A stretch of 54,937 nucleotides of DNA from Rhizaria sp. SCN 62-66 (taxonomy: Eukaryota), in the NCBI GenBank assembly GCA_001724265.1, contig MEDY01000190.1, forward strand, positions 1 through 54,937. The letters are read 5' to 3'. The first letter of the stretch is position 1. Each line of letters begins with the position of its first letter. The translations under genes were made by a program, and so were the position numbers. Below are positions 555 through 46,742 of the stretch, piece by piece. The notes under the pieces were generated by a model that searched no databases, was not told the DNA's origin, and was given only the letters and a program-made list of their open reading frames with translations.

Positions 555-1336
555 CTTGGAGACGCACAATTCGACAAGAAGCATCGGTCCCAGTCATCTC
601 GTCCTCTAGCCTTCGCTGGTGCCCCGCGGCCCTTAGATTTCGAGGCTGGGGTGACTGTGAGCATCAAGCCGAATTTATGCGAACCGCACTGTTTGCCAAT
701 CGGTCAGACAGTCGGGACCGATGTCCGACGAACAGAATCTTACTTGTGTTATAATGATTTACTTGTATACGATCAGTTTTAAAGCCCGCGTGAGTTTTGT
801 GTATACTGACCCCAAGTCCGAGCTCTTACGGCGGCGATTTCACGGAGATCTTGAAGCAATTCCGCTCCTGACCTAAGACTGGTTCGCTCGTTGAACAAGG
901 CCTGATTCAAGCGATTTCAAGTCTTAAACAACTGTCAATTGATATATATTCAGCGGCTTTGTTTTAGTGTGCGTATGCGATTACCAGAAATAATCGCTAG
1001 TAGCATATATGTGGCTGTCAGGACGATATATTCCTTCATTTCTGGCCAACGGCTCGCACATCTCAGTGCGAGTGGGAGTGACGCTGATTAAGGCTATAGT
1101 AGACCTATTTCTTCATTAGAATGCATGCCGTTTCATGTTAGCTGACAACCAAACACATTACCTGCAGCTGCGTTACCATATCGCTATTGACGGACGTCCT
1201 CCTTCTCATCGAGATCTTTTCATTGCGTTCTCTTCGCAACCTCCCAATCTAGATCAGCCACACCCCCAACCGCTGCACAGCTCTCTAAGCCCAACCGTTG
1301 AGCACGCGTCACCCGCATCGTATTGGCCGCTGTTGT

Positions 1337-4300: not shown

Positions 4301-4548
4301 GGGTCAAGGGCGAGGACGACGTGCTCGCCGCGATGAACGAGGCGGGCGGCTCGGACTCCGGCGGCGACAACAGCGGCGCCGGGGCGAGCAGCGGCGACTT
4401 CGCGACCGCGCTCGGTAACGACGCGCTGGTCGTCGAGCTCGGTGACCGGCGCGTGGTGATGCTCGAGCTCAGCGCCGTCGTCGGCGGCCACGAACGCATT
4501 GTGCGCAAGCACAACATCCCCCGGCAGATGTCTGTCGACCTCGTCTAA
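1337..4548 (+). CDS. Deg/HtrA (DegP-family) serine protease with PDZ domains, plant Deg2/9/10-like, probably organellar; exons 1337-2341, 2536-3845, 3984-4548 (~959 aa)
   Basis: Motifs SGSGFLISGRRIITNAHVV (His), ECDLAVL (Asp), IGYPSGGDNLCVTQ|GVVSRIE, QIDAAINPGNSGGP (Ser), SYYVFGGMVFVPLSMPYL and QEVVVMTQVL. Both introns (GTATGT..CAG, GTACGA..TAG) join in frame. N-terminus resembles a transit peptide (RRFSTEA). Ends in TAA. Confidence 0.93.
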
Positions 4549-13391: not shown

Positions 13392-14260
13392 ATGGACGAC
13401 TACGACAGCACCCTTACGCTGGACCTGGACGAGTTGCTCATCGAGAAGGAGATTCTCGAGAGCGGCGAGCACGTTTTCAACGCCGCCGAATGGCTCAGTC
13501 TCGTCGACAAGTTCATCCTGCTCGGCGAGGAGGAGGCCGACGACGAGGTCCTCACGCCCGCCATCGACATGTGCAACTGTACGTCTTACACCATTTTACA
13601 TGATACTCCTTTCCAAACATGAGATAACTCACCTCTCCGTTATCCGCTCTCGTCATAAGTTCTCGCTGTCAACACACAACTGTCTCTCACTGAGCTTACC
13701 ATGATCGGCTTATCGCTCTCCTCGTGTCGTGTTTAGTCCTGATTGCCCGCGGCTCCCGCGAGGCGATGTCTTTCCTGCGCATCTCGCACTGCTACATGCT
13801 CACGGGCCGCTACTCCGCCTCGCGCAAGGCGCTGGCGTCGTGCTTCGCCTCTCCCTCGCTGGACCCGGCGACGCGCGCGGCCGCCGAGGCGCTGGGTGCG
13901 CGGATCACGGCAAAGGTCGGCCACGACGGCAAGGTCGGGCTCATCGCTATTGCTGGCGTTGTCGTCGGCGCAGTGCTCTACTGGCTCAACAGGCGCAAGA
14001 AGCAGCGCGCCGCTGCGCTCGCCGCGACTGGCGCTCTCACCGACGCGATGGCCGCTGGCGACAATGAGGCTGATATCGCGGCTGCGGCGGAGGCTGTGGA
14101 CAACGCCGTCGCTGCTGATGCTGTCGATGCGAGCGCTGCCGCCGCCGCTGCTGCTGCTGCTGCTGCTGCTGCTGTGGCAGCCCCGCGGGAGACTGTGTTG
14201 CTGTCCGACAGCAGCGCGAATACCATCACTCTGACTGGCGGCAAGGCCAGTGGCTATTAA
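13392..14260 (+). CDS. Fis1-like TPR/transmembrane protein (mitochondrial/peroxisomal fission adaptor-like); exons 13392-13578, 13737-14260 (~236 aa)
   Basis: The intron GTACGT..TTTAG joins in frame. SREAMSFLRISHCYMLTGRYSASRKALASCF...AEALGARITAKVGHDGKVGLIAIAGVVVGAVLYWLNRRKK follows the Fis1 C-terminal TPR, K-x-x-x-DG-x-x-G, TM, basic pattern. Ends in TAA. Confidence 0.6.
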
Positions 14261-15134: not shown

Positions 15135-17073
15135 TCAAGTGAAGCGCGACGACAACCCCGCCCGGGCGCTGACGACAGCGCCCTGCTCGCCGCCGTCATC
15201 ACCAAGCCCCTGCTCGACGCTGCGCGCCTGGTAGCTCACCGCGCCCGTGCGCCCCTGCAGCCCCATGGTGCGGGAGCCAGAGGCGAAGAGCTGTTCACGG
15301 TCAAATTCAAACGCCGCCGCGGGGATCGCGCGGTTCAGGCGCCCGTAAGACGCGCTGCGCGGTGAAAAAACAGTAAAAAACACATAGTACAGATTTTTTA
15401 AGTTAATATACATCAACATCGTTGAACGAAAACAAACAATTGAACAGAAGATGTGTCCACATGTCGATGCGCTTAAGATGAAATGATGACGTACCCTGCC
15501 ACTGTCGCAGCCGCGCCGGCAGCGGTGCTGCTGCAGCTGCCTGCCTGCTTCCGCTCCCACGCCTCAACCTTGGCGTCAAGCACCGCACGCACCGTCGCCA
15601 CAAAGCCCCCGTCGTTATGCGCATCGCCGCTGCCACCGCTGCTCGCGGCCACCTTGGGCAGCCCCTCCTCGAGGAGCGCGCGCGCCGCCAGCTCCGCACG
15701 CCTGGCCTCATCGAGCGCGGTGCGCGCGCGCCACAGCGCCTCGGCCGCGCGGCCCGCCGCAACCTTAGCCGCCTCCGCCGCCGCCTCCGCCGCCGCGCTG
15801 GCACTGGCGGCCGCTCCGGAGGACGAGGGAGCGACGCCGCCGTAGGCGGCGACGGCGGCCGCGCGCGCCGCCTTCTCCTGCGGCGTCAGCATCCAGTCCG
15901 CGTGCGCGTCCGCCGCAGCCGCCAGCGTCGCGCGTGACTTGTTAAACTGCCGAGGCGCCTGCAGCGACAGGTCGGCCTCGGCGCGCGCGCCATTGGGCGT
16001 CAGCAACGCGCTGCCGCCACCGGGACGGCCGCCGAAGACGCCGTCGAGCGCCTGGGGAAGACATCGGGACAAACAAAATGAAGAGGTAGTTCGATATGAG
16101 ATAAAAATCTGAAGAAGAAACAAACTCCTAATATTTACGGCAAGAAACAAGTCATTGAAGATGATGTTGTTGTTTTTTAGTGATACATTGTTGAACGTAC
16201 TGTCGGGATGTCTGTCATCCAGGCGCTGCGGGCCGCTGGGCCAGCGGCAGCAGCCTCGGCAGCTTCCTTGGCGGCCTCTGCTGCTAGCTTCGCGGCGAAT
16301 TGCTCCTATACATCAACAATAAAGTTAAATCAAAGCCAGATGAAATCAGACATGTTGGGGTTCAGAGAAAAACTCAGTCTTATAGATAGGACGTCGCAAT
16401 ACACCATTCAAGTTGCTGCACTCTGCCTACTGCAGCCTTCACGGCGCACGACACGTACCTCACGCCGCTTGTCCTGCAGCTTCTCCAACCGCTCCCTCTG
16501 CTCGTCGGTCATGTCCTCCGCCCTGCGCGGCCCCATGTCATCGTCATCGTCGTCGCTGCTGTCTTCGCCGCCGGTCGCTGCGCCCTCCCCGGGTGCCCGG
16601 GTCGTCGCCTCGGCCGCCGCCGCGGTGACGCCCACGGTTGCCGCGACCGTGGCCATGAGCGCGGCCGCCGCCTGCAGCCAGGCCCCGCGCGCGCGGACCC
16701 AGCTCTCAGCCGCCGCGCCCGCCGCCTCCGCCGCGCCCGCCCCGACACCAGTCACCGCTGCATTGCCGCCTGGAGCTGCACTCGCATTGCCTGTAGCTGT
16801 GCTTGAATTCGCCATGGTGGCAGCGATTGAAGCGCGGACCACGGGCTTCAGCGCCGGCGTAAAGCTCGACTTGGCCAGCGCACCGGCCGACTCCCTTACA
16901 GCCACACCGCCCTCGACGACGGCGGAGACAACGGGTCGGAGTTGGGCCAGTAGCAGTGCCTGCTCCAGCGCCGCGCGCACGTCTCGGTCGGGTACGCCGC
17001 CCACGTCGAGCGGCTCCTCCGCGCTCGCGCCGGCCGCGGCGGTTGCTAAGGCCTCCAGGTCAGCGGTGCCGGC

Positions 17074-23590: not shown

Positions 23591-24498
23591 AACACCACTC
23601 TCCAGCTCACTCAATATGCGATCTTTTTGTTTATATCATGCAGCAATGCACATGTACAGCTTGTATTCACGCATTTTTAGTAGTATCTAAATGAATAATT
23701 AGTCATATGTTCAATTTTTCATGTTTCTTGCTTTGATTTTGAATGTGATTTTGTCTCTTTCTGGTTGATGTTGTGTTGTTCACCTGTCGCATGTCTGCGG
23801 CGTGACTGATTTGTTGACAACCAAGCCAAACGCAGTAGACTTATTTTCCGCGCGTGCCACTGCTTATTCTCGTCTTTCCCTGTATATTTGTCATGGACGA
23901 GCATACTCTGCCTAGGCTTGCTTCCATGGTCACTGCTGTCTGTCATTGCAACTACCCTTTTGCAGCTGTGGAACGGAGCGGCAATACGACCCGAGTCGGT
24001 ATTTTCTTGTGTTTGCGACTCCACAAATGCACGAGATATCTTTTTAAGCTTATTGTCGATGCGCAGTTTCCTGTCTGCCGGAAAACGCTCGAGATGAACA
24101 ACACTCACAGCCTGAGTGTCACTAAGACACAAATGTGCAAATATATACACCGATCAAGTTCCTTTAAGTAAAAACACACACACAACTGTATAGATGCAAT
24201 TGTACGTAGTAAGCCGCTCAAAATGGTATGACTTATTGACGAAGGTGTTGTGTTTCTGTGGTTTTCGTCGTTGAAATCGCAAGTTGACGCACGAGCGCAA
24301 ACTCTCACTCAGCCAACGGATACATTTTGGCTGCGTTATGTTTCGTTGAATAATAGAATATTAATGGGTTATTTGGGGATATAATTAAGAAAATATACAT
24401 TTATCAAAGTCTTACATACTATATTGAAAGAATGCGGCATCTGACGATCAATTTCTGTCAATATCTTAACTTTAATCTCGGTTTTTTTGCACAGCTCA

Positions 24499-26029
24499 AT
24501 GGAGCCGGGTCGTCGCCCAAACGGCCCCTCTCCGGCCGCTGCACGCTTTCTACAAGAGCTAGCGCACCGCGACCATCAACAAGCACTTGCCTCTGATGCG
24601 CTGTATAGCTTTAGCGCCCATAAAGAGGCCCGAGACAAGCACGAGGAGGAACGCGTCGCTCGTATCGCGGCCCTCAATCGTCAAAAGCAGCAACACCTTC
24701 GCGAGGTATGTCTCGCTCCCAAACAAATTCATAACAGATCAAGTCGCATAATATTGACCTTAATCTAACCTATATTCCGCTCAATATGCTACTTTTACTG
24801 TAGACCCGCGTCGCGCTCGGTCTGGAGGAGGACGACTCCGCAAACCTTCTCACCACCCCAATGGAGCAAATGCGGGCACAGATGCTGGCCAACCGTGTAA
24901 ATGCGCTTGCAGACACTGATGACGACCGATTTATGCATGTACACGCGCGAGCTGCGGTAGCAGCGCCGTAGCTTACCCCGCAACATCAGCGGAGGCAACC
25001 GCAGCTCCCGGCAGCACAGTCAACACTGGCACATCAACAGCAAGTTCAGCCGCAGCCTCCGCAGTCGTAGCTGCAGCCGCGGCCGCAGCCGCAGTCGGTG
25101 TTGCCCCGGCCTGACAACGGCCCCTTCTCGCCCTCGCGCCTCGAGGCCCGGCGCGCGCGCTCGCTGGCCGCGCTCGCACTTGTCCGTGCAGAGACGGCTG
25201 CCGCAGAGGCCGCCGCCGCTGCTGCGGCCGCAGAGGCCGCGCAGACTGCTGCCAAACAGGCTGCCGCAGAGGCAAAGGCTGCTGCGGCGGAGGCGGAGGC
25301 TGCGGAGGCCGTCGCGGCTGTTGACGCGTCTATCCTGACTCTCCGCGGGATTGAAGGCGCTGGGCATGAGTTCGACTTTGCGCAACCTGACGCGCAAAAG
25401 GGCATCTTCGTCTCGGTTGGCGCCGGCGCCAAGGCAAATACGAACGGTGGCGACACTGACTTGCGCCCAAGCAACACGAATATCAGCGATGTTGCTGGCT
25501 CCAGTGTTGCTGCGACTCAGCACGACCGCGCAATCGGTGCCGGTATTGGCTCTGGCCCTGCAAACAAGAATTACTACGGCGGTAGTCGCCACATTGGTGG
25601 GCATGGCGACTACGGCGGCTACAGTGACAACAGCGGTGGCGAGGACGACGACGAGCTTGTGTCCGCGGGCGCGTACAGCGACGTCAAGCTCTTCCACAAG
25701 AGCGGCGCGGGCACGGCCACTGGCATCGAGAGCGCGGTAAGTGCGACTGGCGTGCACAGTGTGAATCTTGACAACAGCTACTACAACAACAACTCGCACA
25801 TCACAAACATCTCCCACTTGGCGGTTACCATTGACGCTGGAAATAACAAACATGCCATCAATTCATTGCAGGCCAGTGCAAGTAATGGTAAGCATTTGAG
25901 GACAGATCATGCTTCCACTATTGCGGAACAAAGCTTCAGTAGTCGTCGTGTGAACAACGCAGATAGCTCTGATGCACCACTTGTGACTAAAGACCCATGG
26001 GATGCTTGGGACAGTAGCTCTGACGACAG

Positions 26030-26094
<65 letters not shown>

Positions 26095-29000
26095 GCAAAT
26101 CTCGCAACAAAATTACGAATTTACACTCGATTCGCCGTAACAATCGCGACAGCAACAATAACACAATCTTAAACGTCTCTACCTCTGCGAGCAAGAGCGT
26201 CATGACTACTCCCAAAAAGTCTGCTTCGACGGCTGAGTCTGCGGCAGCGCTATTGGTGGCCAATGCAGCGCTAGTTATCGCGTCTCCGCCCCGTGTATGC
26301 CGCGGGTACCCTACGGTGTCACTGCGTGCTCGCGACTTGCAGCAGCATCAGCAACAACAACAACAGCAAAACAACGTCGACAGCACTGACGGCTCTGATG
26401 CGGCACCAGGTAGCAGCGCAGTGGATGCTGTCAAGAAGACTGGTCTGCTGGGCGGTAAAATGTACATTGTGCCGCCGATCAGGAGCAATGCATCAAGCTC
26501 TATCGTGCGCAACTCCAGCAAGTCGCACAACGGGGCCGATGACGATAACTATGGCGATGGCAACAGCGACAGCGATGGTGATGACGCCAGCAGCGACAAT
26601 AGCAATCGCAATAATATCGACACGAATATCGACCACAGTCGCCGCTTTAACTATAATATCTTCAGCAGCAGCACTCGTCGCACGCATGTTGTGGCAGACT
26701 CTGTCGTGAGCTCTGTTTCCGTGTCGAACGCAGGCTCAGTGCACGTGTCTGCGTACGTGCCGCACAGCAACACGCGCCCCCGCCCGATGCCTGCGGTGCC
26801 CAACGGGCCCCTGACGCTCCGCACGATCCCTGTCTTGATGGTGCCGGTTACAACTGCAGGAACGCATCCAGCAACGGTGCAAGACTCAGTGAGCTCACAG
26901 CCTCAACTTCAGTCTCCCGATCAGTCAGCGGGAGTTGCGCGACAGTCATTGCTGCACAATAACAGCTCGTTATCGCGCCGCTACACGGGCGTGCCGTCCC
27001 CGTCGTCGTCGCCCGAGCCGACCGAGGCCGACGTCGCTGCGCTGTATGCGCACGAGGCTGCTGAGAAGCGCAGACGCGAGAGCGCGATTGCGCGCGCTGC
27101 TGAACAGGGGTGCGACGTTGCGAGCACGGTGCGCCCACTAACAAGCGCGGTTAATAACAACTCTGCACAAGCAAGTCAACGTCGCAGCAATAGTGACGTT
27201 GTTGACTCTGTGGGATTTGTGGCACAGAGGAGCAGCATCAGTGTCTCTAAGAACACAGCTGATAGCAGTCAAAGCGCTGCCCGTGTCCACGACCCACTGG
27301 CCGTCAGCATGATGAAGCGCCCCGCTTCGACAGCGACTGCTGTTGGTAATCGCGACAGCGCATACGAAACTGTAACGAATTATAACAGGACTACTGGGCT
27401 AACTACGGTCGTTTTGCCGAGTGAAACACTGTCTGCTAAGGCCGCTGCAACCGTCGCTGCTTCCGCCGCCGCCGCTGCCGCTGCTGCCGAGGCCTTGCGC
27501 AGGCAGTATGAGGACGAGGACGACCTTGACAGCCATTTAGCGCCGCGCGAGCGTCGCAGCTACAAGCGCGCGCAGGCACTACGCGAGCAGCAGCAGTTGC
27601 GGGAGCAACAGGCGCAGCAAGAGCTGGAGCGTGGGAAGCAGCAGCGGCAGCTTGAGCAGAAGCTCGACAACTTTCTCGATAGTTGTGACCAGGAGCGCCG
27701 CCGCGAGCCGAGCAAGCAACATCCGTGGAGCAATAGTGGCAACGGTGTCGTCGCCACGATATGGACCGACCTCACGAACAGGGCCCGCGCCGAGGCCAGG
27801 GCCGCAGCCGACGCGAAGTTTTTCTTGCAGACCGACCCTTTGCACGACCTCGGGCCCGAGTCCGAGGCCGAGGCCGCTGCCGACGCCGCGCTGGCCGAGG
27901 CCAAGCGCTCCCTCGCGCTCGCCGCGCGCCGCCGGCTCCGGGCCGAGCGCGCGCGCGCGGCGGACGACGCCGACAGGAGGGCTGCGGCGGCGATCGAGAG
28001 CGTCATGACCGGCAGCGGGGCCAGGGAGGTGCTCGATATGTCAAGCCGCGCGGTCGATAAGTCAAGTCGCCACAATGACGAGTCGCATGCTGGCGTTGCT
28101 CATGTTGAGGACGACCGAAACACGAGTGGTCACAGTGCTAATATGAAGAGCGTGTACGAGCATGTGACGCGTCTCAGGACAACGGAGGCAACGTCGGGGC
28201 TTTATCGTGAATACTCAAAGCGGACGTTTGTGACTGCCGCTGATGACGATCGTACTGATGCTGCGCACGGCTATAACGATGATATTACCCGGAATAATAA
28301 CGCAGGCGACAGCGTGCGTGCTCACGGTGACTCTCGGGTAGGTGTTTGTGGTCACTCTCAACGCCACGGTCACGCTGACTACGACGGAAGTGACGACGAA
28401 CATGATGACCACGACGACGATGACGCTGCTTCTGATCGTGGCGACAATACTCGTAACCTTAACCACTTAGAAGATCTTCTAGTTTATGGCCACGCCTACG
28501 GAACCGGCGACGGCGGGAGCAGCGGCGAACGTGACTTCGACAATGACGGTGACGCCGCATACGACAACTGCTATGTCCACGAAGGTGACGGCGGCGACTC
28601 TATGGGCGAGTATGCCGCCGGTGGTGTCGGTCGTCCTCACAAGGATCCCAACTACAGCGGCAACGGCAACGGCAACCCTTACTATGATGACGGCTCCGAC
28701 GGCGAGTTCAACGACCACGATGACTGCATTGAAGGCGACTACTCCGAGGGTGAGGGTTATTACTACGAAGGCGACGGCGGGGAAGGAGACTATGAGCTTG
28801 ACGACAGCAGCGGGTACGTCGTTGGCGATAGAGGGAGCGCAACTTACTATGACGACGACGACGACGACGACAACGCCTATCCGGATGCTACCCATAGCCG
28901 CGCGACCCACAACCGCGATGCCTACGCTCACGATCCTCGCAGACACTATCGCTATAACCAAGGCAACCACAACACATATCGCGGGTATAGCAGCAGCCGT

Positions 29001-30533
29001 AGCAACGACAACATTGCTCGCGGCAAGGGCTTCACTGTCACCGTCGACAACGACAATGATTACGATGATAACGGAGTCAATAGTGGCGACAACAACAACA
29101 ATAACAACAATCCAAACTTTAGCGGTGACGGTGCGAACGCGCGCAACGACGACAACCACGTCCGTGACCGCAGCAGCAGTGACGATGACGGATTCTATGC
29201 GATCGACGGAAATCAGAGTGGCAACGCGACGGTGTGCGACGAGTCGGACGATGACAGCGATGACTTTAGTGCATCTAATAGTTATCGCAGGATTGACAAC
29301 AGCCGCACCACGTCTCAGACACAAACGCAGGCCACTCAGACGCAATCCCGCACGCAATCGCAGAGAACCACTGAAACCCAGACTCAAGCGCGCGCCCACA
29401 CACAGGCCCAAGCTTACACTCAAACCCTGAGCCAAGCTCAGAGTCAGTCTCAGACGCAGACTGACGGCAAGGTTCAGTCAGAAACACAGCCACAGTCGCA
29501 GAGCCGGAGTCAGCCACGCGGCCGCCGGTCGCGCCGCCGCGGCCTGCAGACGCTGCTGCTGGCGCCGCCGCGGCACTGGCCGGGCGGGCGCGTGCCGCCG
29601 GAGCTGTTGTCCTTTAACAGGGCGCGGAAGCGCGCGGTGGACCTGGCGATCCGCACGCGCGCGCACACGCACGGCCGCGGCGTGACGGGCGGGGGCGGGG
29701 CACGCCGCAGCAGTCACGTCCAGGGCGGCGGGAGCATGCCGGAGACTGAGGCTGCGGCGACAGCGACAGAATGCCTGAACAGCAGCACCACATATGGCAG
29801 CCCCCGGAAGACTGGTTCGTCTCCTGAGAGATCTAAGCAACGCTTGCCGAGTAACGATGAGTCCATCAACCGCAGCTACTCCCGGGGTGGACACTGTCAC
29901 TCCAACAATGCGAGCTTCAGTGACGCCGGCGCGGCGTACAGCCGCTCGCCCCGGCGCGGCGGCAAGGCTGGCAATGGCCATGTGCCGACTGTGCCGATGA
30001 CCGTCGCCGTGACCACGCAAGCAGCAGACACAGGCGCAGGCGCAGGTGCGAAGGCTGCAGTGAGCTTGGGCTATTCTAACACGAGCGCGCGACCTGTTTG
30101 GCGCGTCTCCGGCGGCGTCGGCTCCCACAACAACAGCATCAACCTCAACAGCAACGGTGTTAAGAGCAATGGCGCCGGTGTGAATAGCAGCGCCAGCGCT
30201 GCGGCCGGCCTCGGCGGCGGCTACGGCTACGGCCACGGCGGCGGCGGCGCGGCGGGCGCCGAGATGGGCGTGCTGACGCGCGTACTCGTCAATACGGGCC
30301 GCAAGGTCGGCGTCGTGAATCACAAAAGCAGGCGCGAGAGACAGCGCGCGCGCGAGCAGCAAGAGTTGCAGGAGATGCAGGAGTTGTATGAGATGCGGCA
30401 ACTGCAGGAGCAGCAGGAAGAGATTGAGCGCGAGCGGCTGGAGCAGTGGCAGCGCGAGGAAGAGGAGGCGTTCAGCGCGGTGCTGGACATCAGCGACGCC
30501 CCCGTGAATGTCTCGCACGAGAAGCGCGCGTAA
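24499..30533 (+). CDS. Large low-complexity protein of unknown function with coiled-coil segments; exons 24499-24705, 24804-30533 (~1978 aa if two in-frame TAGs are read as sense)
   Basis: The intron GTATGT..CTAAC..TGTAG (24706-24803) puts exon 2 in the frame of the 1811-aa ORF. The only interruptions are TAG at 24969 and 25068, within a Gln/Pro-rich stretch. Ends in TAA. Confidence 0.72.
26031..26093 (+). repeat. (AAC)n microsatellite encoding poly-Asn, with one ATC interruption
   Basis: Directly visible tandem AAC run inside the CDS. Confidence 0.95.
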
Positions 30534-31076
30534 AAACGAACTCGTTATTTAGTACTTGTGCGACTGCACACAGTGTTACCGTTACATAGAATCAAGCTTT
30601 GGCTAACAAAGAAGAATATCAATGAGCGCCATAAACGCATACAAAACTTATTTTATGAGATATACAACTTAATATAGAGTATTTTCAAGTCATTAGTATG
30701 ACATTTCTAAAAATCCTTGATGAGACTGTTGATTCTGATGCTGTACTCCTCGTGTTACTATTTTTCTTGGTGACCAAGCGACTGCAGTGGCGACCGGTGA
30801 CTGCCAGCAAGGGCCTATACTCCGCGAGTTCAGAAACGTATATCATGCCTCGCACCATCCGTCAAATAGCATTCCGCGGACGAAATCCGCATTTATGTGA
30901 CGTAATATCTATTATAATGTAATTATGTTGTGCGAACCGTTATCTATGCATGGCAGCACCTTCCTCAAGTTTCCACAACTTTTGTTGCTGCTCCACTGCA
31001 TGTTTCCCCCTCCCGCACTTCGTTCACCTCGCATGATATACTCACAACCTAAACTCCCTCTTGTTGCACCGGATAG

Positions 31077-32849
31077 ATGTCTCGTCGCTCGCGCTTCTAC
31101 TCCCCGTTTGTGGTTGGCGCCACGCTGGCGTTCATCTACACCGGCTGGCGCGTGAAGCAGCACGAGCTCAACAACTCAAACATGTCATGCTCCTTCAACT
31201 CCGGCCTGCGTACGTCACTACATCAATAACAACCACAAAGCGTTGTGTATCCGCTATATCGCTGACTACGTCGGACTATACTGTCATTTTACTTCTTAAA
31301 TAATGCGTCGGCACTACCTCGCACAACAAACACTAACTTCCCTTCACTCCCGTTCTCTTGCACTTGACCCTTCTCTCTATCGCGCACTTGCGCGCTCGCT
31401 CGGGTCGCAGGCGGTGGCTTGATCTACGAGCGCCTGACCCCGTTTCTCTTCAAGGCAGACCCGGAGCGCATGCATCGCTTGTCGATGATTTTCCTCTCTG
31501 CCCCGCGCTTCACCCGCTACCTCTTCGGGCTCATCGACACCAAGCCGGCGCCGCCGTCGCTGCAAACCTCGCTGCTGGGGCTGACGTTCCCCAATCCCGT
31601 GGGGCTGGCCGCGGGCTACGACAAGGACGGCCAGGCCGTTGACGGCTGCCTCGACCTGGGCTTCGGCTTCACCGAGGTCGGCTCCGTTACGCCCTTCCCG
31701 CAACCCGGCAACCCGGTCCCGCGCGTCTTCCGCCTCCCCGAGGACCGCTCCGTGATCAACCGCTACGGCTTCAACTCGCAGGGCGCGGCCGCGGTCGCCG
31801 CGATCCTCTCGCGGCGCTACGAGAACCGCCAGGCGATGCTTGACTGGGAGCGCAAGCGCGCGCACGACCGTCTCCACGGGCGCCCGCCCCTGTGGGAGCG
31901 GATGACCGGCGCCGCGCCGCCCGCACCCAAGGAGCCCCCCAAGCACGTCTCGGCGGCGGAGCTGGGCATTGTGGGCGTGAACCTGGGCAAGAACAAGACC
32001 AGCGACGACGCCGGCGAAGACTACGCCGCGGGCGTCGCTGCGCTGGGCCCTCTCGCCCACTACCTGGTCGTCAACGTGTCATCGCCCAACACGCCCGGAC
32101 TGCGCGACCTGCAGGGCCCCGCCGCGCTGCCCGCGCTGCTTGCGCGCGTGCTTGCCGCGCGCGACGCGCTGCCTGCGCGCGCCGTCCGCGGCTTCCCCGA
32201 GCGCCCCGCCGTGCTGGTCAAGGTGGCACCCGATCTCACTCTCGACGAGCGCGCCGACGTCGCGGCCGCGTGCCTCGGTACGGGCGTCGACGGGCTCGTC
32301 GTTGCCAACACCACCGTGGCGCGGCCCGCTTCGCTCAAGAGCAACGCTGCGGTGGTCGCCGAGGCGGGAGGGCTCTCGGGCGCCGCAGTCAAAGACGTCT
32401 CGACGGAGATGGTGGCGGATCTCTACACGCTGACCGAGGGCCGGCTGCCCATCATCGGCGTCGGCGGCGTCGAGACAGGCGCCGACGCGTGGGATAAGGT
32501 TCGCGCGGGCGCGTCGCTCGTGCAGATGTACACCGGGCTCGTCTACCGGGGGCCGGTCGCGGTCAAGCAGGTCAAGGAGGGGCTGGCGGCTAAACTTCAA
32601 GACGAGGGGCTGGAGGCGATCGGCGAGGCCGTGGGGCGCGACGCCGCGGGCATGCGCAGCGCGGGCGTGACGCGCGCGCTGGTTGACGCCACGCACAGCA
32701 AGGCGGTCGCCATCGCCAAGGAGAGCGCCAGTCAAAACAGCAAGCTGCTGGCCAGTGTCGGCGTGACCGACGCGGCCGCGCTGGATGGCCACGCAGGGGC
32801 GGGGGCGGGGGCGGGCAAGAGCAAGGGCTGGTTCTGGGGTTGGTGGTGA
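31077..32849 (+). CDS. DHODH: Dihydroorotate dehydrogenase, class 2 (quinone-dependent, mitochondrial); exons 31077-31209, 31411-32849 (~523 aa)
   Basis: Motifs [70 protein letters not shown] (catalytic Ser), VKVAPDL, GGLSG and IIGVGG. Exon 1 supplies a basic leader and a TM helix. Intron GTACGT..CAG is in frame. An additional upstream exon is possible. Ends in TGA. Confidence 0.96.
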
Positions 32850-33370
32850 GTGCCCTCTGCAAGCGCGATGGGATGTCACGTCAGTAAGCTGGCGCCTTCA
32901 TGGTCGCTTGTGGTGAGTGCTCAGTAACGCATGCCTGCGAGCAGTGCATTGTTCAGCACAGTCTTGTTTTGAAAGGGCTTAGTAGAATAAGTGTATATAT
33001 ATTATAAGCGTTAGTCAGCATTGTGTGACATAGTGCGATGCTGGCCCTGCACATCTTTGTTTCAGCGAAATACATAATGTATCATTTATCGTGACACTTG
33101 CTGTGGCGGCTTCGAGGGGGGTGCTGGCTTGGGTGGCTTAGCCAGAAAAAAATCAAGATGAGTTCTGATAGACACATCTGTATAATACGAATGATGTTCG
33201 AACTATAAAAACATTTCGCATATTATAATGCATATTTAAATTAAGATTTTCTGAAAACAAAATTGAGACTCACTTGTGCCCCTTTTAATTCATGCCCGTC
33301 ATCAGTTCGACAACCAGTCTCGTCCCTTCTCCCAACCCCTCTACCTCGTCTCCCTAGCAACTACAGCTTA

Positions 33371-36300
33371 ATGCAAACGCCTGCGCGCGTGCGCCCTGCT
33401 GCGGGGCCGCTGCAGACCGCTTTTAACGGTCCCCGCGCCTCGGCTATGTCGCCCTCCGACTCCTCCCCCCACACGCCCTATACAACAGCAACTGCCACGA
33501 GCTCAGCCGCTGCAGCAGCAGCCCGCAACGGTCCCGCCCCCGGCGGCCCGGCCGCGCCTCCCGCCGCGATTCTCTCCCCGTCGTCTCTTTCCGCGCGCGT
33601 GACCACGTCGCACTTCCCGACCCCGATGGAGCTGGCGCGTTCGGGCGCGCTCGTCTTCCCGCCGGTCCCGCCCTCTGAGCGCGCGCTGTGGGCATCGACG
33701 CCGCTCGCCAAGCTGCGCGAGTCCGAGGCCGCGCAGCGCGCGCAGATCACGGCCAAGCGCCAAGAGCTGCGCTCGCTGGTCACGCGCTGTTTCCGGCAGC
33801 TTTTGTCGTCCGCCGACACGATCATCGCGATGGACGGCACCGCCACCGCGCTGCACGAGCGCATCTCCAGCCTCGACGCGCTGCTCAACAGCATCGACAG
33901 CTCACTAGCTGTCGACGGTGCCAGCGGTGATGGCGCCGGTGCTGGCGCGCTTGACTCCGCCTCAGCCTCCGCGGCGGCCTCGTCCGCTGCTGCCGCGGCG
34001 ACCGCTGCCGCGACCGCGTCCGTGACCGCGCTGACCGGCGCCGTGTCCTCTGTGTGGGCCGCGCTGCGCGGCGGCGACGAGCTGGAGGCCGCCGTAGGGT
34101 GCTTTGAGGCCGTCGCGCTCTACACTGCGGCGGTCAACGCCGCAAACAACGTCAACACCAAGAACACCCCGAACGCACCAGACAGCAAGACGGTGAGCAC
34201 GCCTGATACTACTGTTCTGAATGGCTCGTTGTTCGTTGAGCAAGCGAACGCGGCGCTGGCGCTGCTGCTGGCGCACGCGCCCGCGCTCACGGCCGCCGCC
34301 GCGCAGCGCACGCTGGCGCGCGCGACCGCGGGTCCCGACGCGCTCGCGAGGGCCACGCTGGCGCATTCACTGGCCACCGCCGCCGCCGCCGCTGCCGGCA
34401 AGACCGCCGCTGCCGCCGCCGCCGCCTCGGCGAACGCGAGCGACGCAACGGCGACTGGCAGTATGCTGCCGTTCACGTTTGGCAGTGGAAGCGACGACTG
34501 CAGTGCGAGCGCGAAACAGCAGCAGCAACAGGCGGTGCTGTCGTTTCTGAGCGCGCGGCTCGGCGTTGCGCGCACCGCCTTGGACGCGGCAACCACCGCT
34601 CTGAACGGCGCTCCTGGTAGCGCCGCCGCGAGTGCGCGTGTGCGAGTGAGTGAGTCGGTGCGCGTGCGCATCGTCACGCACGCGATCGCCACAGCGGTTC
34701 AGGCCGCGAACACGGCCTTCGCGCTCACGCCGATGCTTGCGCTGCCCTACAACATTAGTGTCGCTGGCAACAACAACAACAGCAACAGCAACAGCAATAG
34801 CAGTGCGAGTAGCAATGACGTCTCGTTCAAGTCACTCGAGGCACGCACCGCTGACTTGTGTGTGATGCGTCCTAACTTCGCGCGCGGCTTAACTTTAGCT
34901 CTCACCCGCGCCCAGTCGCAGTCGCAACAGGCATTAGTTCTTAGTAACGCTCGCGCGACAGCGAGCCACACGGCTCCGTGGCTGCTGGTGCCGCTTTCAC
35001 TGCCTCCCGCGTCTCTGCCCGCGACCGTGCTGCCCCTGTGGCGCCTGACCGAGGCCGCGCTCACCCCACGGCTTAACTTCCTCATCGGACTGCTGACAAC
35101 CGCGAAGGAAGTCGCCGCGGCGCGCTCGGCGCTTCTCACCGCATCAACCGCATTTAGCGCGAGTCATAGCCCGGACACGAGCTTGGTGCCTGCAAACTCT
35201 GCTCCTGTTGCGCCTGCGAGTGCCTCTCTGTCTCACCGCTGCCCTCTCACGGGCGTCACTGCTTGGGCCGGCACCCCCGCCACGTGGGCCGCCGCCGCCG
35301 CCGCCAACCTTGGCCCTTCAGCCGTCGCCGCCACCGCCGCTGCCGCCGCCACGGCCAGTCAGCCCGCTGGCCCGGTGGTCTCGCGCGCGCCCTCGTGGCC
35401 CGACGCCTGCGCTGAGGCGCTGGGGGCCCGCGTGGGCGCCGCAGCCGAGGCCGTGGCAGGTCGGCTGGGCGAGCGCGTGCGCGCCACGATTGCCGTGTTC
35501 ACGGTCACCGGGCTCACGGTCACCGCCGGGCAGCGGGACGCTTACACCGCGGCCGAGAATGTAAGGGGCGCGGGTGGGAGCGCGCCTGCGTATAGCTGGA
35601 TGTCGCAGGCTGACTGTGGCATCACCTCCGCGCTCTGCACGGCCCTCTCCATCTACTACAATAACAACGCCAATAGCGGCCTCAACGGCTCCGTGGCTGC
35701 TGGTGACAGTGCCATCGCGACTGCGGCCGCTGTCGCCGCCTTCAGGGCCGCGCGCGCCGCCGACCGGGCCCGCGACCGCCTCCGCGACCGCGCCCGTGTC
35801 CGGTTCACCAATGCTGCTGCGAGTGCCGACGCGACCGCACTCACAGTTGTCTCTCGTTCTCACAGTTAGAATCTACAGAATCTGAATCAGAGTCACAAGC
35901 GGCACACTGCAGCGGTTGTGGCTGCCGCCGCCGCCCGCGCCCGCGCTCGCGCGCGCGCCGCCGCTGCGTCCATTGCGTTCGCGCGCCACGTGTTCTCGCT
36001 GTTGGGCGTTTGTGACGGCTTTTTGACGCAGAACCCGCTGGGCCTGACCGTGGCGGAGGCAGCCGCCGCGGTGGTTGCCGTCGCGGGCCGGCGGGCCGGC
36101 GAGGGGGTGACTGCGAGCGGCACGGACAAGGCGGCTGTGAGCGGCAGCAAGGGCAAGAGCAGCGGTAAGAGCTCGAAGAATAAGGGTGTTAATCCCGACG
36201 CAACGACTGCTAATCACGCGTCTGTCGTGTTCTTCTTGTCTCTGCTCGCTCTGTTCACGGAACAGCAACAGCAGCAGCAGCAACAGACCGGATTTAGCTC

Positions 36301-38890
36301 GAGCACGACGGCGATTAATGCTGCGGGCGGTAATCGTCCTCCGCTGCTGTCAACAACGCTCTCGCACCACGGGCGCGTAACGGCTGTTTTGCGCACAGTC
36401 AGTGCCGCGATTGACGTCGCTGTGCTCGACGCCGCGCGCGACGCGCTCCTGCTCACGCGCCCTTTCGCTGGTATGAGTACCCCCTTAGACGGCGCCGGGT
36501 ACTACTGCAGCGTAAGCCGCCTTGCGTCGGTCTCGGCGCTGTGCGTGGCCGATGTCGCCAGCAAGGTCACCAGGGCTCTCGCGACCGCAGTGACCGTGGC
36601 CGCGGCGGATGCGGCGGCGGCTGTGACCGCGGTCACTGCTGCTGCAGTGGCGAGCGGCGCCCTGGACTGTCCCTCTTTGGCCCCCAGTCATAACAGCCTT
36701 TACACCGCGAGCAATAGCAACGGCGCGAGCACAAGCGCCAGTGCCAATGTGTGCGATAGTGCGAGCGTTGTCGCTCTGAACGCTGCGCTCTCGTCGAACT
36801 CACTGCTCCGCGGCTTAGCTTCGGAACAGCGGGGCGGCCTACCTGCGGCGCAATTCGGCCGCGCGTGCGACGCCGCTTCTGCCACGACGCTGCTGCTCTC
36901 GCGCGGCCTAACTTCGAGCTCGCGCGCCACAGCACTGCTGCTTCTGGTCGCATGCCCCGCCACCGAGAGCGCGAGTCCTCGCGCGGGCTCGGATGCGGCT
37001 GTGGCCGGTCTCGCGTGCGCCCACGTGTTTGCGCTCGAACTACTCAACTCGGCCTCGGTCGCCGCAACGGCCGCCGCGAACGCTGCCGCCGCGGCTGTTA
37101 CCTCTGCAGCCGCTCAGGACGGCACGAGCGTTGCCGCTGTTGCTGCTCGTAATAGCTGTGTGAGCGAGAGCTCTGTGAGCGCGAGTGCCGGCGCTGCGAT
37201 CGCGCCCGCACAGGCCGCCGCGGCCGCGCTGCGCAGCCACTGGCCGATGTCGCACGCGTCGTTCACTCTCTCCGCGCTTGCTGCCAGCGCCACCACGGAT
37301 AGCACTGGCGTGACGGCCTCAGCCTCTGCGGCTGCGGTGACCGCGGCTGCTGCTGCGGGCGCGGCCGCGGCGACGGGCGCTTGGAGCCGCGCGGCAGCTG
37401 CCGCCACTGCGGCCGCCTTCGGTTCGGTTCTCAACACAGTTAAGACCAACCCTAGCAGTGTGTCCATGAGTGAGTTTGGGCTTGAGTGTGCACGCGTTGT
37501 CGCTGCTGCCGCCGCCCGCCGCCGTGCGCGCGCATGGGGCGCTGTCTCGGGCGCAAACAGCGCTGACAGCGGCAGTCTTAATAGTGACAGTCTTAACAGC
37601 GGCAGTCTAGGCACCGAGAGCAGCCGTTGCAGTGAAGCGATCGCGCTTGCGACCGCTCTCTGTGCTGTCGTCACCTCATCCACAGGGAATCCCTCTCAGC
37701 AACAGCAGCACGTCACCGTGGGTGCTGCCTATGTGTTGCTCCATGCGCTCCCAAGCTCACAATCGCAGGCTCAGGAACTGGCTGTGCCCACCGAGCTTGC
37801 GAGCGCGGTGGCCGCCCTCGCAACTGCGCTCAGCAGCACTGGGAACGCCCCTGCGATGACTCCCCGTGAGCTTGTCGCTGCTCTCGCCCACTTGCATGCG
37901 CGCTCGCAGTCGCAGCTTCCGGCTCAGTCGCTGGCCCAGGCCGCCTCTGCTCTCGCGATTCTGCTGCTCTCGCCTGATCGCGTGAGCCCTGCTGCGCTGG
38001 CATCGCAGGGAGACAGCAACACGAGTCGCGTGAGCGTCATTCGCGGCCCTCAGCTCGCTGAGTTGCAGTCTGTCTTCACCAGCGCAGTGACCTCATTTGC
38101 GAAACCCCCTCTCAGTCACTCGAATAACCACAATAACAGCGGTGCGAACAGCATTGCTGTTGTCGCAAGTGCCAGCGCTGTCGCCCGCTCGCTGCAGCTG
38201 CCCACACACATCTACGCCTCCGCCTTTGCCGCCGCGGCCGCTGCAAACAACAGCAGCGCGGGTGCGGTAACCAGCGGCTCGAAGCCCGGCGCGGTCGCCG
38301 CCGCAGGCAAGAGCGGCAGCGGCAGCGTTCTCGGCGCCAGCGGAGCGCGCAAGCAGAGCGGCGCTGATGGCAACGGCAACGACAACGGCGACGATGACGA
38401 GGACGATAACTGGGGCGTCAGCGCGAGCATCGGCGGCAGCGGCGTGTTTTCGCTCGCCGCGGCGGCCGCGAGCCGCAGCAGCAGCGGCGCGGGCAGCAGC
38501 GCGGGCCGCGGCAGCAGCGCCAGCGGAGGCGGCAGCGCCAGCGGTATGGCTGGTCCGGAGGCCGCGGCGGCACTGTTGCGGCGCCACGCGACCGCGGCGA
38601 CCACCAGCAACACAAACAGCGCCGCCGCCGCAGCCGCAGCTGGCTACTCGGGTGGCGATGGCAGAGGCAGGGCGAGGGACGGCGGCGGCGCCCGGCGCGG
38701 CGGCGCGGGCTCTAAGGGTGTCGAGGCCGCGGATGTAAGTGCCCAGCAGACTGTGAGCAGCGTTGGTGAGTCCGTTGCGCAGCACTTGGCCAGCTCGCTG
38801 CAGAGCGCCAAGGCCACGGCGAGCTCGTTCCTGGCCGCCAGCGACGGCGCGACGAGCATGCTGGCCTCGTGGGGCCTCACGTTCGACTAA
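33371..38890 (+). CDS. COG1: COG1-like (Vps51/Vps67 N-terminal domain) Golgi tethering subunit; a single ORF of ~1839 aa if TAG at 35867 is read as sense
   Basis: TPLAKLRESEAAQRAQITAKRQELRSLVTRCFRQLLSSADTIIAM matches the COG1/Vps51 N-terminal pattern (K-x-x-ELR-x-x-V...R-x-L-x-x-x-ADTI-x-x-M). The 868-aa and 990-aa ORFs are in the same frame, separated only by one TAG, with no AT-rich intron. Ends in TAA. Confidence 0.68.
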
Positions 38891-40022: not shown

Positions 40023-41139
40023 TTAATCCTTCTTGGTCTTGACAGCGCCGCTGCTCTTGCCCTTGCCGCCCTCGGCGCCGCCGTGCTTCTTGGTGTAGAA
40101 GTTGCCGAAGAGCGCGAGGAGGATGAGCATGTCGGTGACCTGGAGGACCTTGCCGGTGAACCAGTAGGGGGAGAAGAAGAAGCAGTAGACGGCGTGGACG
40201 AGGTTCGAGAAGAACTGGGTCATCTGGAACATGGTGAGGTACTTGCCCCACCAGAGGAACTTCTTGCGGCCCTCAGGGGACTTGATGAACACCGTCAGCA
40301 GGTAGTAACTGAACAAGAACAAGAAAGGAGAGTAGAATGATGATGAATGCAGGAAAGTGAGTAATTGAGCACAAAGATAAGTTGGGATAAAAACCAAGCA
40401 TGACATTGATATATAGATGCATATACATTCCAGGTTCATCAAGCATTCGCGAGGATATGCGTTGACGCTGGTTTCCGTAACAGCAGAGTTGAGTTGCAAA
40501 AGATGCCGATATTATGTTATAGAAGAGGACGTACGTGTACATGACCACGTGGACCCAGGAGTTGAAGGCAATGCAGAACCAGGCGTCGCCGCCAGGGGCG
40601 CAGCGGGTGACGAGCCAGAAGATAAAGCCGGTGCTAGTGTGGTGAAAGACGTGGAGGAACGAGACCTGGCGCAAGTTGCCCTTAATGAGCATCAGGAAGG
40701 TGTCGATGAACTCGTAGTACTTGGAGATGTAGAAAACGTAGAACACCCAGGCAATGTCGGCGTCGCGCTCCATGATGTAGGCCTCGCCCCAAAGGGTGTA
40801 GTTGTTCTTGAAGACGTAGTAGATGGTCATGACGCCCATCCAGAGCGAGAGCAGCGCGAGGAAGGCGTTGTGGACGATGGCGACCATGCGCAGCACGGGG
40901 CCGTCGGGCTTCTTGACAGCGTTGGGGTTCTGGGTGAACATGATGAGCGGGTAGAAAATGGCAAGCACGCCGAGGTAAAAGACGTTAAAGAGGATGAAGG
41001 GTGTGGCCGAGTTGACGAACCACCAGTCCTTGGTGAGGGGAGTCTGCGTCATGTCGGCGCCGAGGGAAGTGAGGAAGTTGATCACGGCCGGGGAGACAAC
41101 GGCGTCGAGCGCGTTGTAAGACGCAACCAGCGAGTCCAT
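40023..41139 (-). CDS. ELO/GNS1-SUR4 family fatty acid elongase, PUFA (delta-6-like) type; exons 41139-40535, 40308-40023 (~296 aa)
   Basis: Motifs HNAFLALLSLWM, FYISKYYEFIDT, QVSFLHVFHH (His box), NSWVHVVMYT|YYLL, LWWGKYLTMFQMTQF and LFGNFY. C-terminal KTKKD dilysine ER-retrieval signal. Intron GTACGT..CAG is in frame. Ends in TAA. Confidence 0.95.
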
Positions 41140-44638: not shown

Positions 44639-45192
44639 TCAAAAGTGCATGTCATCGAACGCGTCGGCGATGCTACCGAGCTCAGCATGAACACTGGCGG
44701 CGCGCGCGGCAGCGATATCAAAGCGGATCCAGTCGATATGCGCCGTGTTGGTGCCGGTGAGCAGCGGGGGCGTCATGGCAGCAGCGGCCTCGGCGAACTT
44801 AACGTAGTTGCGAATCTCCTGTCAGACGCGGGCGGGAGCAAATAAGGAAGGAGTAGGCAATACAAACAAACATATGATGAGATGCTCAACGTATAAAAGA
44901 GTTGGATAGTATGCGTTCTAGCTTCTGTTGTTGTTTCTATCTTTACAAAGGTTATATCAAGAGCGTACATGGGACGAACCTTGAGGAGATTCATGTAGTT
45001 CGTGCAGTGTTCCTCGAGCTCTTGCTGTTTGAGCTCGTTGCTGTTGACGCTGGAGAGGCACACCATGGTGCGGGACGCATGCTTGAGGAGCTCAACAGCG
45101 CCATCTTCAACTGCGTTCAACGACTTGATCGCAGGAATGCGCGCCAGATGGTCCGCCAGCGTGGGCTTGACCTCCGTAGCTGAGCCTTCCAT
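44639..45192 (-). CDS. Small helical protein, Mediator subunit 11-like; exons 45192-44980, 44818-44639 (~130 aa)
   Basis: The intron GTTCGT..GACAG joins IKSLNAVEDGAVELLKHASRTMVCLS...EEHCTNYMNLLK to EIRNYVKF...AAARAASVHAEL. Size and helical pattern resemble Med11. Ends in TGA. The gene model is more certain than the family call. Confidence 0.55.
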
Positions 45193-45505: not shown

Positions 45506-46742
45506 ATGCGTGCATTTATTGCCCTGCTGCTTCTTGCGGTGGTTTTCGTTTCTCATGCGGTACGTCTCTCGCCCATTTACATGACCTCTTTTGCTCGTCC
45601 AGAGGAGGTCCTCTTCGCTGCTCTGTTCGACCGCCACCAAACTGCCCTTCTGGGGCGTCCCCCAATCCTGTTCTTGGAACTGCCATTAATTTGCCACAAT
45701 ACTACAAGCTCTGTCTATCCTGTCAACGCCCCCCTGAACCGTCTGTCTTGTCTTTGCGTCACCATTTGCCCTGCAAAGTCGACTTCCTCTCACCGTCACT
45801 TCTCGTCTCTCCCTCCCTCTTTCCCCCTTTGTTTCTCGCTTCCCACCGCTTCCCATTCGCCCCTACCCACTCCACACCCTCCCCATTATATTGCACACCA
45901 CGCTTTGCCCCATCACTTGCTATTGGTTTGCCTCTCACGCATAGAACGCTGTCCATGAGGAGCTAAGTAATGAGGTCAGTGACCCCACCTCGTTCGCCGA
46001 GCTTGACTCGGAGTACGCGATGGAGGTCGACGCCGAGGCCGAGGCTGAGGCTGAGGCCGAGATTGCGCCGTTCAACGACTGGGAGACGGCCACCCGCAAC
46101 GCGGACCTCAAGCGCCGCACGCGCCCCGTGTTCAAGACGGGCGGCAAGTTCGACTCGCTCGACTGGGGCAACATCCCCTCTGCCGACACCATGCCCGGCT
46201 CCCTCGTGCGCCTCACCAACGCCCCTGGCGCGATGCCCGCCTTCAGCGAGGACATCCTGCCTAAGTCACTCTTCCCCTCGAAGAAGTGCCCCAACCCGTC
46301 GCAGGCGGCCGAGGTCAAGGCGTGGGCCAAGCTCACCCAGCGCATCAAGCGCGGCAAGGCCACCATCATCAAGTACACCAAGTGGGCCACCGCCGCCCGC
46401 GCCGCGCTCAAGAAGATCGCCACCCAGGCCCGCACCACGAAGAACAACGTCAAGAGCCTGAACCAGGCGATCCGCGGCATGAAGTACCAACGCAAGCAGC
46501 TCGTGAAGCGCCTCAAGAGCTACAAGCTCAAGGCGCAGCTCGACCGTGCCGCGCAGCGCATGATGGAGATCCAGGGCATCAGCCGCCAGATCGGCGGCTA
46601 CGACCGCTCTGCCAAGGCCAAGAAGGCCGGCGTTGCCTCCGAGAAGCCTGCCAAGAAGGCCGCTGCCAAGAAGGCTGGTGCGAAGAAGACTGGTGCGAAG
46701 AAGACTGTCGCCAAGAAGGCTGCTCCCGCCGCCAAGTTCTAA
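45506..46742 (+). CDS. Secreted-type protein: signal peptide, acidic EA-repeat pro-region, basic coiled coil and Lys/Ala-rich tail; exons 45506-45559, 45945-46742 (~283 aa)
   Basis: Exon 1 encodes MRAFIALLLLAVVFVSHA. The phase-0 intron GTACGT..CATAG is in frame with the 240-aa ORF. Strong codon bias (AAG, GCC) suggests high expression. Ends in TAA. Confidence 0.85.

Follow-up and report, generated by a model that had tools for sequence, protein, structure and literature searches.

Two long genes on the forward strand of contig MEDY01000190.1, assembled as part of Rhizaria sp. SCN 62-66 (GCA_001724265.1) and analysed here over its whole length of 54,937 nucleotides (nt; hereafter the window), are interrupted by TAG codons and by no other stop. 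TAG1 (24969-24971) and TAG2 (25068-25070) lie in the gene referred to here as gene A and TAG3 (35867-35869) in gene B, and all three are in frame with long open reading frames (ORFs); TAG2 is the stop immediately 5′ of an ORF of 1820 codons (25071-30533), and TAG3 stands between two ORFs of the same frame, 33245-35869 and 35870-38890 (1006 codons). An initial annotation of this DNA had reported the three codons in these two genes and proposed that UAG is read as glutamine (Gln) while UAA and UGA remain stops. The presence of the codons is confirmed in the window and in contigs from other sequencing runs, and it is on their reading that the evidence divides.

Gene A begins with an exon of 69 codons (24499-24705, ATG at 24499), which is open up to a GAG/GTATGT donor and whose coding score is weakly positive when the training set is the body of gene A. 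Intron 1 (24706-24803; 98 nt, G+C content (GC) 0.36) is canonical (GTATGT...CTGTAG); once it is removed, exon 1 shares its frame with the TAGs and the long ORF. Exon 2 as modelled (24804-25070) holds TAG1 and TAG2 and is Pro/Gln-rich from about 24972; its coding score is weakly positive over 24795-24929, -0.04 over 24804-24968 under the general model, and negative over 24930-25110. Frame +1 scores positively over this last interval, but this was set aside, since the score arises artefactually where CAG/CCG repeats are read as AGC/CGC; a TAG is present in frame +1 as well. The main ORF (25071-30533) scores as coding from about 25200 onward and ends in TAA; no in-frame ATG occurs before 26202, which lies 377 codons from TAG2 across a stretch of GC 0.58. 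The predicted protein of about 1900 amino acids (aa) is rich in poly-Asn, poly-Gln, Asp-rich and TQ/SQ repeats, with a GC at third codon positions (GC3) of 0.69, below that of its neighbours; the read-through protein matches no Pfam family at E<=10.

Gene B consists of part 1 (33371-35866), 832 codons from its ATG with an N-terminal Vps51/Exo84/COG1 domain (Pfam PF08700, E 3e-7), and of part 2 (35870-38890), 1006 codons ending in TAA. Across 35267-36586, each of the 11 windows of 120 nt has a positive codon score in the TAG3 frame and negative scores in the other two; the coding frame is clear at TAG3 and weak at TAG1 and TAG2. From TAG3 to the next in-frame ATG (36473) there are 201 codons, and this stretch has a GC of 0.65; part 2 therefore does not qualify as an ordinary gene in its own right. 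Since the ORFs that follow TAG2 and TAG3 lack an ATG for 377 and 201 codons, at a GC above that of the intergenic spacers (seven measured, 233-1132 nt, GC 0.36-0.47), their translation must enter from upstream. TAG3 itself lies in a patch of 58 nt (35843-35900) with a GC of only 0.41. At 38470, within part 2, one RNA-library contig lacks a base (depth 3.8 of 7.84) that is intact in the DNA runs, which may be an error.

The window comes from a bioreactor or wastewater metagenome and belongs to an uncultured protist; four sequencing runs contain 80-100% of its sampled words, and one of these may be its source, while the small shares in runs X5 and X7-X12 say nothing on habitat. The letters at the three sites were compared with contigs from other runs. 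Record 9 of run X3 over 23600-25705 and record 17 of run X4 over 23600-25263, both of which span TAG1 and TAG2, and record 13 of run X3 over 35418-38336, which spans TAG3, differ from the window at no letter, so that the 2017 (X3) and 2025 (X4) data and the window are identical at the TAGs, at TAG3 with X3 as the only other run. None of the six variant places listed falls on a TAG. Because identical letters are carried by contigs of other runs, the TAGs are not assembly errors; CAG, which the initial annotation had named as the letters to be expected in reads if they were, is found at none of the sites. The comparison is one of contigs, from which rare variants drop out, and a minor CAG allele may thus be hidden, but the three TAGs are genuine DNA letters. 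Each is one C-to-T change away from CAG and has Gln-rich surroundings. The initial annotation had gone further and placed each TAG where local repeats have CAG. This holds for TAG2, which occupies the position of a CAG in a (CCGCAG)x6 Pro-Gln array (25059-25094; Tandem Repeats Finder: period 6, 6.0 copies, 73% matches) whose phase is kept on either side. At TAG3 it is seen by eye only, as two 9-base units differing in 2 of 9 bases (T/C first, A/G last), where Tandem Repeats Finder reports no array, and at TAG1 it is weak.

Thirteen complete gene models, rebuilt independently, reproduce the earlier tally of terminators: TAA in nine, TGA in four and TAG in none, with gene ends at 4546, 4784, 14258, 15137, 23588, 30531, 32847, 38888, 40025, 44202, 44641, 46740 and 47181. 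The sample is small, and if TAG normally ended 10 to 30% of genes, none in 13 would be expected with a probability of 0.25 to 0.01. The previous statement that the other models have no internal stops also holds: once 11 introns are removed, the confidently assigned exon cores add up to 13,566 codons, none of them a stop. TAA ends 9 of the 13 genes despite an exon GC3 of 0.69-0.92. The base after these 13 stops is G in eight and A in three, a purine in 11 of 13, and the bases after TAG1, TAG2 and TAG3 are C, C and A. A C after UAG, as found at TAG1 and TAG2, makes a leaky context.

Spliceosomal introns are present in this GC-rich window (GC 0.52-0.75 in 2-kb windows). They were placed on the plus strand at 2342-2535, 3846-3983, about 13581-13735, 24706-24803, 45560-45944 and 53542-53739, and on the minus strand at 15355-15494, 16052-16200, 16306-16458, 40309-40534 and 44819-44979. 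Eight were found through an AT-rich body with flanking ORFs, one (45560-45944) through ORF logic, and two (about 13581-13735 and 44819-44979) through frame breaks. All 11 donors have G at +5 (GTAYG in 10, GTTCG in one), a strict consensus that is somewhat circular in that part of the set was gathered with an AT-rich/GTRNG filter, 3 of the 11 having been found without it. Over 40-60 nt at their 3′ ends the introns are rich in T and C and contain CTCAC- or CTAAC-like motifs. With matrices built on 9-11 sites, known donors score 6.0-14.3 (each scored with that donor left out) and known acceptors 4.9-18.7, and nine of the known introns have a GC of at most 0.54 and a frame score of at most 0.14. 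The three TAGs lie outside canonical introns, and no intron with the strict 5′ signal of this organism can remove any of them, which supports a sense UAG. A further TAG at 45942 was considered as a fourth sense codon and rejected, as it is the end of the canonical intron 45560-45944 and is followed by a strongly coding ORF.

What stands of the proposal of Gln at UAG is that the codons are real in the DNA and outside canonical introns, that the ORFs downstream cannot start by themselves, and that TAG ends none of 13 genes. On these grounds it is tenable, if somewhat short of an even chance, that UAG is read as a sense codon, most likely as Gln, at the three sites, with UAA and UGA terminating. 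UAG would then be decoded by a tRNA-Gln with the anticodon CUA, or by efficient near-cognate reading by tRNA-Gln(CUG), and a release factor that recognises UAG poorly would be required alongside. Translation through the TAGs, the identity of the amino acid, the tRNA and the change in eRF1 are all inferred. Such a reassignment would be young or of low efficiency, TAG having been lost as a terminator and re-emerging via CAG-to-TAG changes, because it makes up about 0.6% of the putative Gln codons and sits only in low-complexity stretches of lower GC3. A fuller picture, which we regard as doubtful, is that of a wastewater protist, GC-rich, deep-branching and with introns, in which UAG is at an early point of being reassigned to Gln independently of other lineages, a snapshot of codon capture or of an ambiguous intermediate; with no greater assurance, UAG at that early stage would be gone as a terminator and barely returning in disordered low-complexity segments.

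Several observations weigh against a sense UAG. TAG accounts for 3 of 507 putative Gln codons (0.6%), compared with 403 CAG and 101 CAA in the confident codons. A ratio like that of TTG to CTG (80:469) predicts about 69 TAGs, and the 8% share known from the fornicate Iotanema spirale about 40; at that 8% the probability of three TAGs or fewer is 7e-15, which excludes a reassignment that is mature and leaves room only for one that is young or inefficient. The codons occur in 2 of about 14 genes, which is not regular use across genes, and two of them share a gene of about 1900 codons, with only 33 codons from one to the other. In the genes of the window to which a family or domain could be assigned (DHODH, ELO, ZIP, DegP-like, ADH, LRR) there is no TAG, and none of the three lies in a Pfam domain or in an alignable conserved column. 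A tRNA scan and an Rfam scan of the 54,937-nt window gave no tRNA and no match, and eRF1 is not among its genes. In a metagenomic locus that carries a relative of the window's DHODH (L001), two genes end in TGA and TAA and there is no in-frame TAG in 1954 + 435 codons, which is weak evidence, as the locus belongs to another organism and is too small a sample for its code to be judged.

The remaining points against the Gln reading, a splice-like motif at TAG3 and a non-exonic codon usage between TAG1 and TAG2, are at the same time those that favour a standard code in which the TAGs are removed by atypical or alternative introns, an explanation that is possible but on the doubtful side. For gene B one would have to suppose that 35561-35869 (GTAAGG...CTCACAGTTAG, 309 nt), whose last three bases are TAG3, is an intron or a 'composite' exon that is retained. 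The 20 nt that end at TAG3 have an acceptor score of 12.4, a value that no exonic AG out of 1504 (99.5th percentile 7.5) and no out-of-frame exonic TAG out of 78 attains; a similar motif closes the genuine intron ending at 45944, and the first 27 nt of the low-GC patch are T/C-rich and look like a branch site, a polypyrimidine tract and a TAG, with branch-like CTCAC motifs as in known introns. Within 400 nt upstream, the GTAAGG at 35561-35566 is the sole in-frame donor-like site with G at +5; it defines an interval whose length is a multiple of 3 and whose combined score of 16.4 lies between the 95th (14.7) and 99th percentiles of 360 control codons. This donor nevertheless scores 1.9-4.0, below all known donors, and the body that would be removed (35561-35842) is exon-like in periodicity, in GC (0.70) and in frame score (+0.39, the exon median being 0.35, with -0.58 and -0.81 in the other frames). 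The sequence 3′ of TAG3 also stays AT-rich for 30 nt more, whereas known exons start GC-rich. The splice-like 3′ signal of TAG3 and the exon-like body upstream of it thus conflict. Two mini-introns, 35846-35899 (54 nt) and 35846-35869 (24 nt), were rejected, being far below the known lengths and without G at +5.

In gene A, the same explanation would need either pairing of the strong donor at 24706 with one of the weak distal acceptors 25070, 25076 and 25145 or the presence of another weak intron, for instance 24957-25070. From TAG1 to TAG2, the 32 intervening codons (24972-25067, GC 0.62) score -0.80, lower than any of 2520 exonic windows of 32 codons (minimum -0.65) and than 95 Gln-rich exonic windows (minimum -0.63), and 24804-25070 has two stops in each of the three frames. 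The best donor within 24804-25070 scores 0.6, however, short of the organism's consensus as is that at 35561, and when TAG-free models of the 5′ end with one or two introns were searched exhaustively, no acceptor paired with the 24706 donor exceeded 1.2, and the best second intron reached a total of 5.1. TAG1 and TAG2 themselves score -3.5 and -3.0 as acceptors, values reached by 24% and 21% of exonic AGs; those beyond TAG2 are without a pyrimidine tract, and a boundary there would split the phased CCGCAG array. The intron with the top score, 24706-25191 (19.4), was rejected, as its phase gives the wrong frame, stopping near 25340. What lends weight to splicing is that introns of the window can resemble the TAG sites: 5 of the 11, which range in length from 98 to about 385 nt, end in TAG, four are divisible by 3 in length (138, 153, 156 and 198), and two that are canonical and in frame, 3846-3983 and 53542-53739, contain a single in-frame stop (TGA at 3886 and TAA at 53614, respectively). 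The genome therefore does make look-alikes of stop reassignment. When stops flanked on each side by 60 stop-free, coding-like codons were collected, four were found, namely these two, TAG3 and a minus-strand TGA at 54534. The last, whose coding-like flanks lie antisense to the gene at 53740-54936, is probably a GC-rich antisense artefact. Three codons do not yet distinguish unusual splicing from reassignment, and the latter is possible but unproven.

Two further explanations keep the standard code. The TAGs may be CAG-to-TAG nonsense mutations in dispensable or decaying low-complexity genes, or on one haplotype sheltered by intact alleles absent from the contigs, which is rather unlikely. Every TAG is a single C-to-T step from CAG, and 68% of the single-base routes to a stop from the codon set of the window yield TAG, so that all three being TAG is unsurprising by itself; genes A and B are moreover of low complexity and without detectable orthologues, and contigs drop rare variants. 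Yet decay would have left three TAGs in 2 of 14 genes and no frameshift, TAA or TGA in about 3,700 other codons of the same genes, with the coding signal retained downstream and the 2017 and 2025 contigs in agreement with the window. Quite unlikely is that TAG1 and TAG3 are true terminators, of a 124-aa protein (gene A exons 1-2) and an 832-aa COG1/Vps51-like protein (gene B part 1), and that the downstream ORFs are made separately through readthrough isoforms, non-AUG starts or internal transcripts. In favour of this, the proteins homologous to the N-terminus of gene B have 976 and 1017 aa, lengths closer to 832 aa than to 1839, part 1 was stored by gene callers as an independent protein, and TAG2 is directly followed by a CTG. 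Both downstream ORFs, however, continue in the same frame without a spacer and without ATG as described above, the other neighbouring genes are set apart by AT-richer spacers, and among the 13 clear genes there is none that ends in TAG.

Contigs of a poly(A) metatranscriptome (run X6) fall on both genes A and B, one of them at 36773-37071 inside gene B part 2, and among the contigs listed none covers any of the three TAGs. Among the joints listed for the run data none is intron-like, only long-range low-complexity ones being present. Contigs 24570-24792 (record 25 of X6) and 40496-40724 run unspliced over two clear intron donors, the former over the gene A donor at 24706 and the latter into the ELO intron. 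As they are unspliced over clear introns, contigs of this library may be DNA or pre-mRNA and are no proof of mature mRNA.

No protein aligning across any of the TAGs was found in the homologue searches. The N-terminus of gene B aligns only over residues 145-305 (BLASTP, hhalign) with the proteins of 976 and 1017 aa, which carry only PF08700, and at E<=10 nothing besides this family was found in Pfam for the two read-through proteins; the name COG1-like for part 1 is our reading of the motif, with no tool result behind it. There is no full-length homologue of the read-through gene B among proteins of 1034-3292 aa, a HMMER search against 1.84 billion representatives returned the protein itself and four weak N-terminal matches only, and for part 2 the ESM Atlas gave no lead (best score 0.78, TM <=0.28). 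The 832-aa part 1 is stored in a public collection as protein P0003, and public gene calls break both genes at the TAGs.

The other genes of the window bear on the placement of the organism. The gene at 31419-32846 encodes a quinone-type (class 2) DHODH, an indication of an aerobic mitochondrion, and that at 1289-4548 a DegP9/10-like protease with PDZ_3. Metagenomic relatives of the DHODH are 68% and 66% identical to it, and named taxa are all at 56% or less; searched against metagenome contigs and genome contigs, the window DHODH had no relatives in either. A search with the 68%-identical relative (P0010) gave 12 loci, of which only L001 (7805 nt) is close, and this is not syntenic with the window; L002-L012 are 36-66% identical to P0010, the match of L012 spanning only 83 residues. 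On the minus strand of L001 (1922-7786), an unbroken ORF of 1954 codons lies beside the DHODH gene and encodes a Cys-rich protein with EGF-like repeats and a C-terminal membrane anchor. The exon matches listed for the protease are to plants, green algae, apicomplexans, Perkinsus, Symbiodinium and stramenopiles, and the exon is 30% identical to a Toxoplasma protein over 99% of the query. The lineage is unplaced, perhaps near SAR (stramenopiles, alveolates and Rhizaria) or Archaeplastida. A window of GC 0.52-0.75 seems unlike ciliate DNA, and a quinone-type DHODH and canonical introns give no sign of a fornicate. At 45507-46742, a small secreted-looking protein is encoded by a gene with a signal-peptide-like first exon of 18 codons and a C/T-rich intron of 385 nt; it has a Lys/Ala-rich tail, and its only Pfam match is faint (KIF21A_4th, E 0.003).

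If the sense reading is true, a GC-rich non-ciliate lineage would provide a further independent case of uncoupled UAG and a data point on the states of eRF1 and tRNA-Gln that enable uncoupling, and a usage of about 0.6% would show an early stage that is predicted by theory, seldom seen and lost in mature codes. The annotation of the lineage hinges on the answer, since public gene calls split both genes at the TAGs. If the TAGs are instead spliced out, the locus is a caution that in-frame introns ending in TAG mimic stop-codon reassignment.

Uncoupling of UAG from UAA in eukaryotic nuclei is rare and has been reported for Iotanema, for the rhizarian exLh and for a few ciliate lineages (PMC5304391, PMC11687900); a full-text literature search of main articles found none describing a protist from wastewater or activated sludge in which UAG is reassigned. 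In Iotanema spirale (Fornicata), UAG encodes Gln, 104 stops are UAA, 15 UGA and none UAG, and about 8% of the Gln codons are UAG, which occurs in frame 204 times in 126 genes, some of them in conserved columns (PMC5304391). The window resembles it in the meaning proposed for UAG and in the order of stops, with UAA first, UGA second and UAG never (9/4/0), and differs in that three TAGs in about 14 genes (0.6%) are found, none in a conserved column, and in that the evidence comes from DNA only and not from transcripts. The phyllopharyngean ciliates Hartmannula sinica and Trochilia petrani, which the initial annotation had not named, likewise reassign UAG alone, to Gln, and prefer UAA as stop, but sense UAG is widespread there and rare here, and suppressor tRNA genes have been found for their Leu-reading relatives (PMC11687900). 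In exLh (PMC5304391) and the TARA phyllopharyngeans (PMC11687900), UAG is also uncoupled from UAA and encodes Leu, whereas the TAGs of the window adjoin CAG/CAA-rich sequence and TAG2 replaces a CAG in the CCGCAG array. Near-cognate readthrough of UAG by tRNA-Gln in eukaryotes with the standard code (PMC13192750) shows that Gln can be inserted at UAG without a dedicated suppressor, and C follows TAG1 and TAG2. The known cases extend proteins past a stop at low efficiency, whereas 1000-1800 codons would depend on readthrough here. Within the window itself, the in-frame introns 3846-3983 and 53542-53739 are like the TAG sites in having one in-frame stop within a chain of open ORFs and a length divisible by 3; they are distinguished by GTACG donors, a GC of 0.33-0.36 and the lack of a coding or frame signal, while the TAG-bearing stretches have a GC of 0.62-0.70 and no such donor. 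NCBI translation table 15, used for Blepharisma nuclei and some phages and also not named in the initial annotation, alters the translation of 24804-25130 by TAG=Q and nothing else; it serves as a bookkeeping label, membership in which requires genome-wide evidence. If the reassignment is real, the code would thus be one already known, of the table 15 type, and what would be new is the lineage and the very low usage of the codon.

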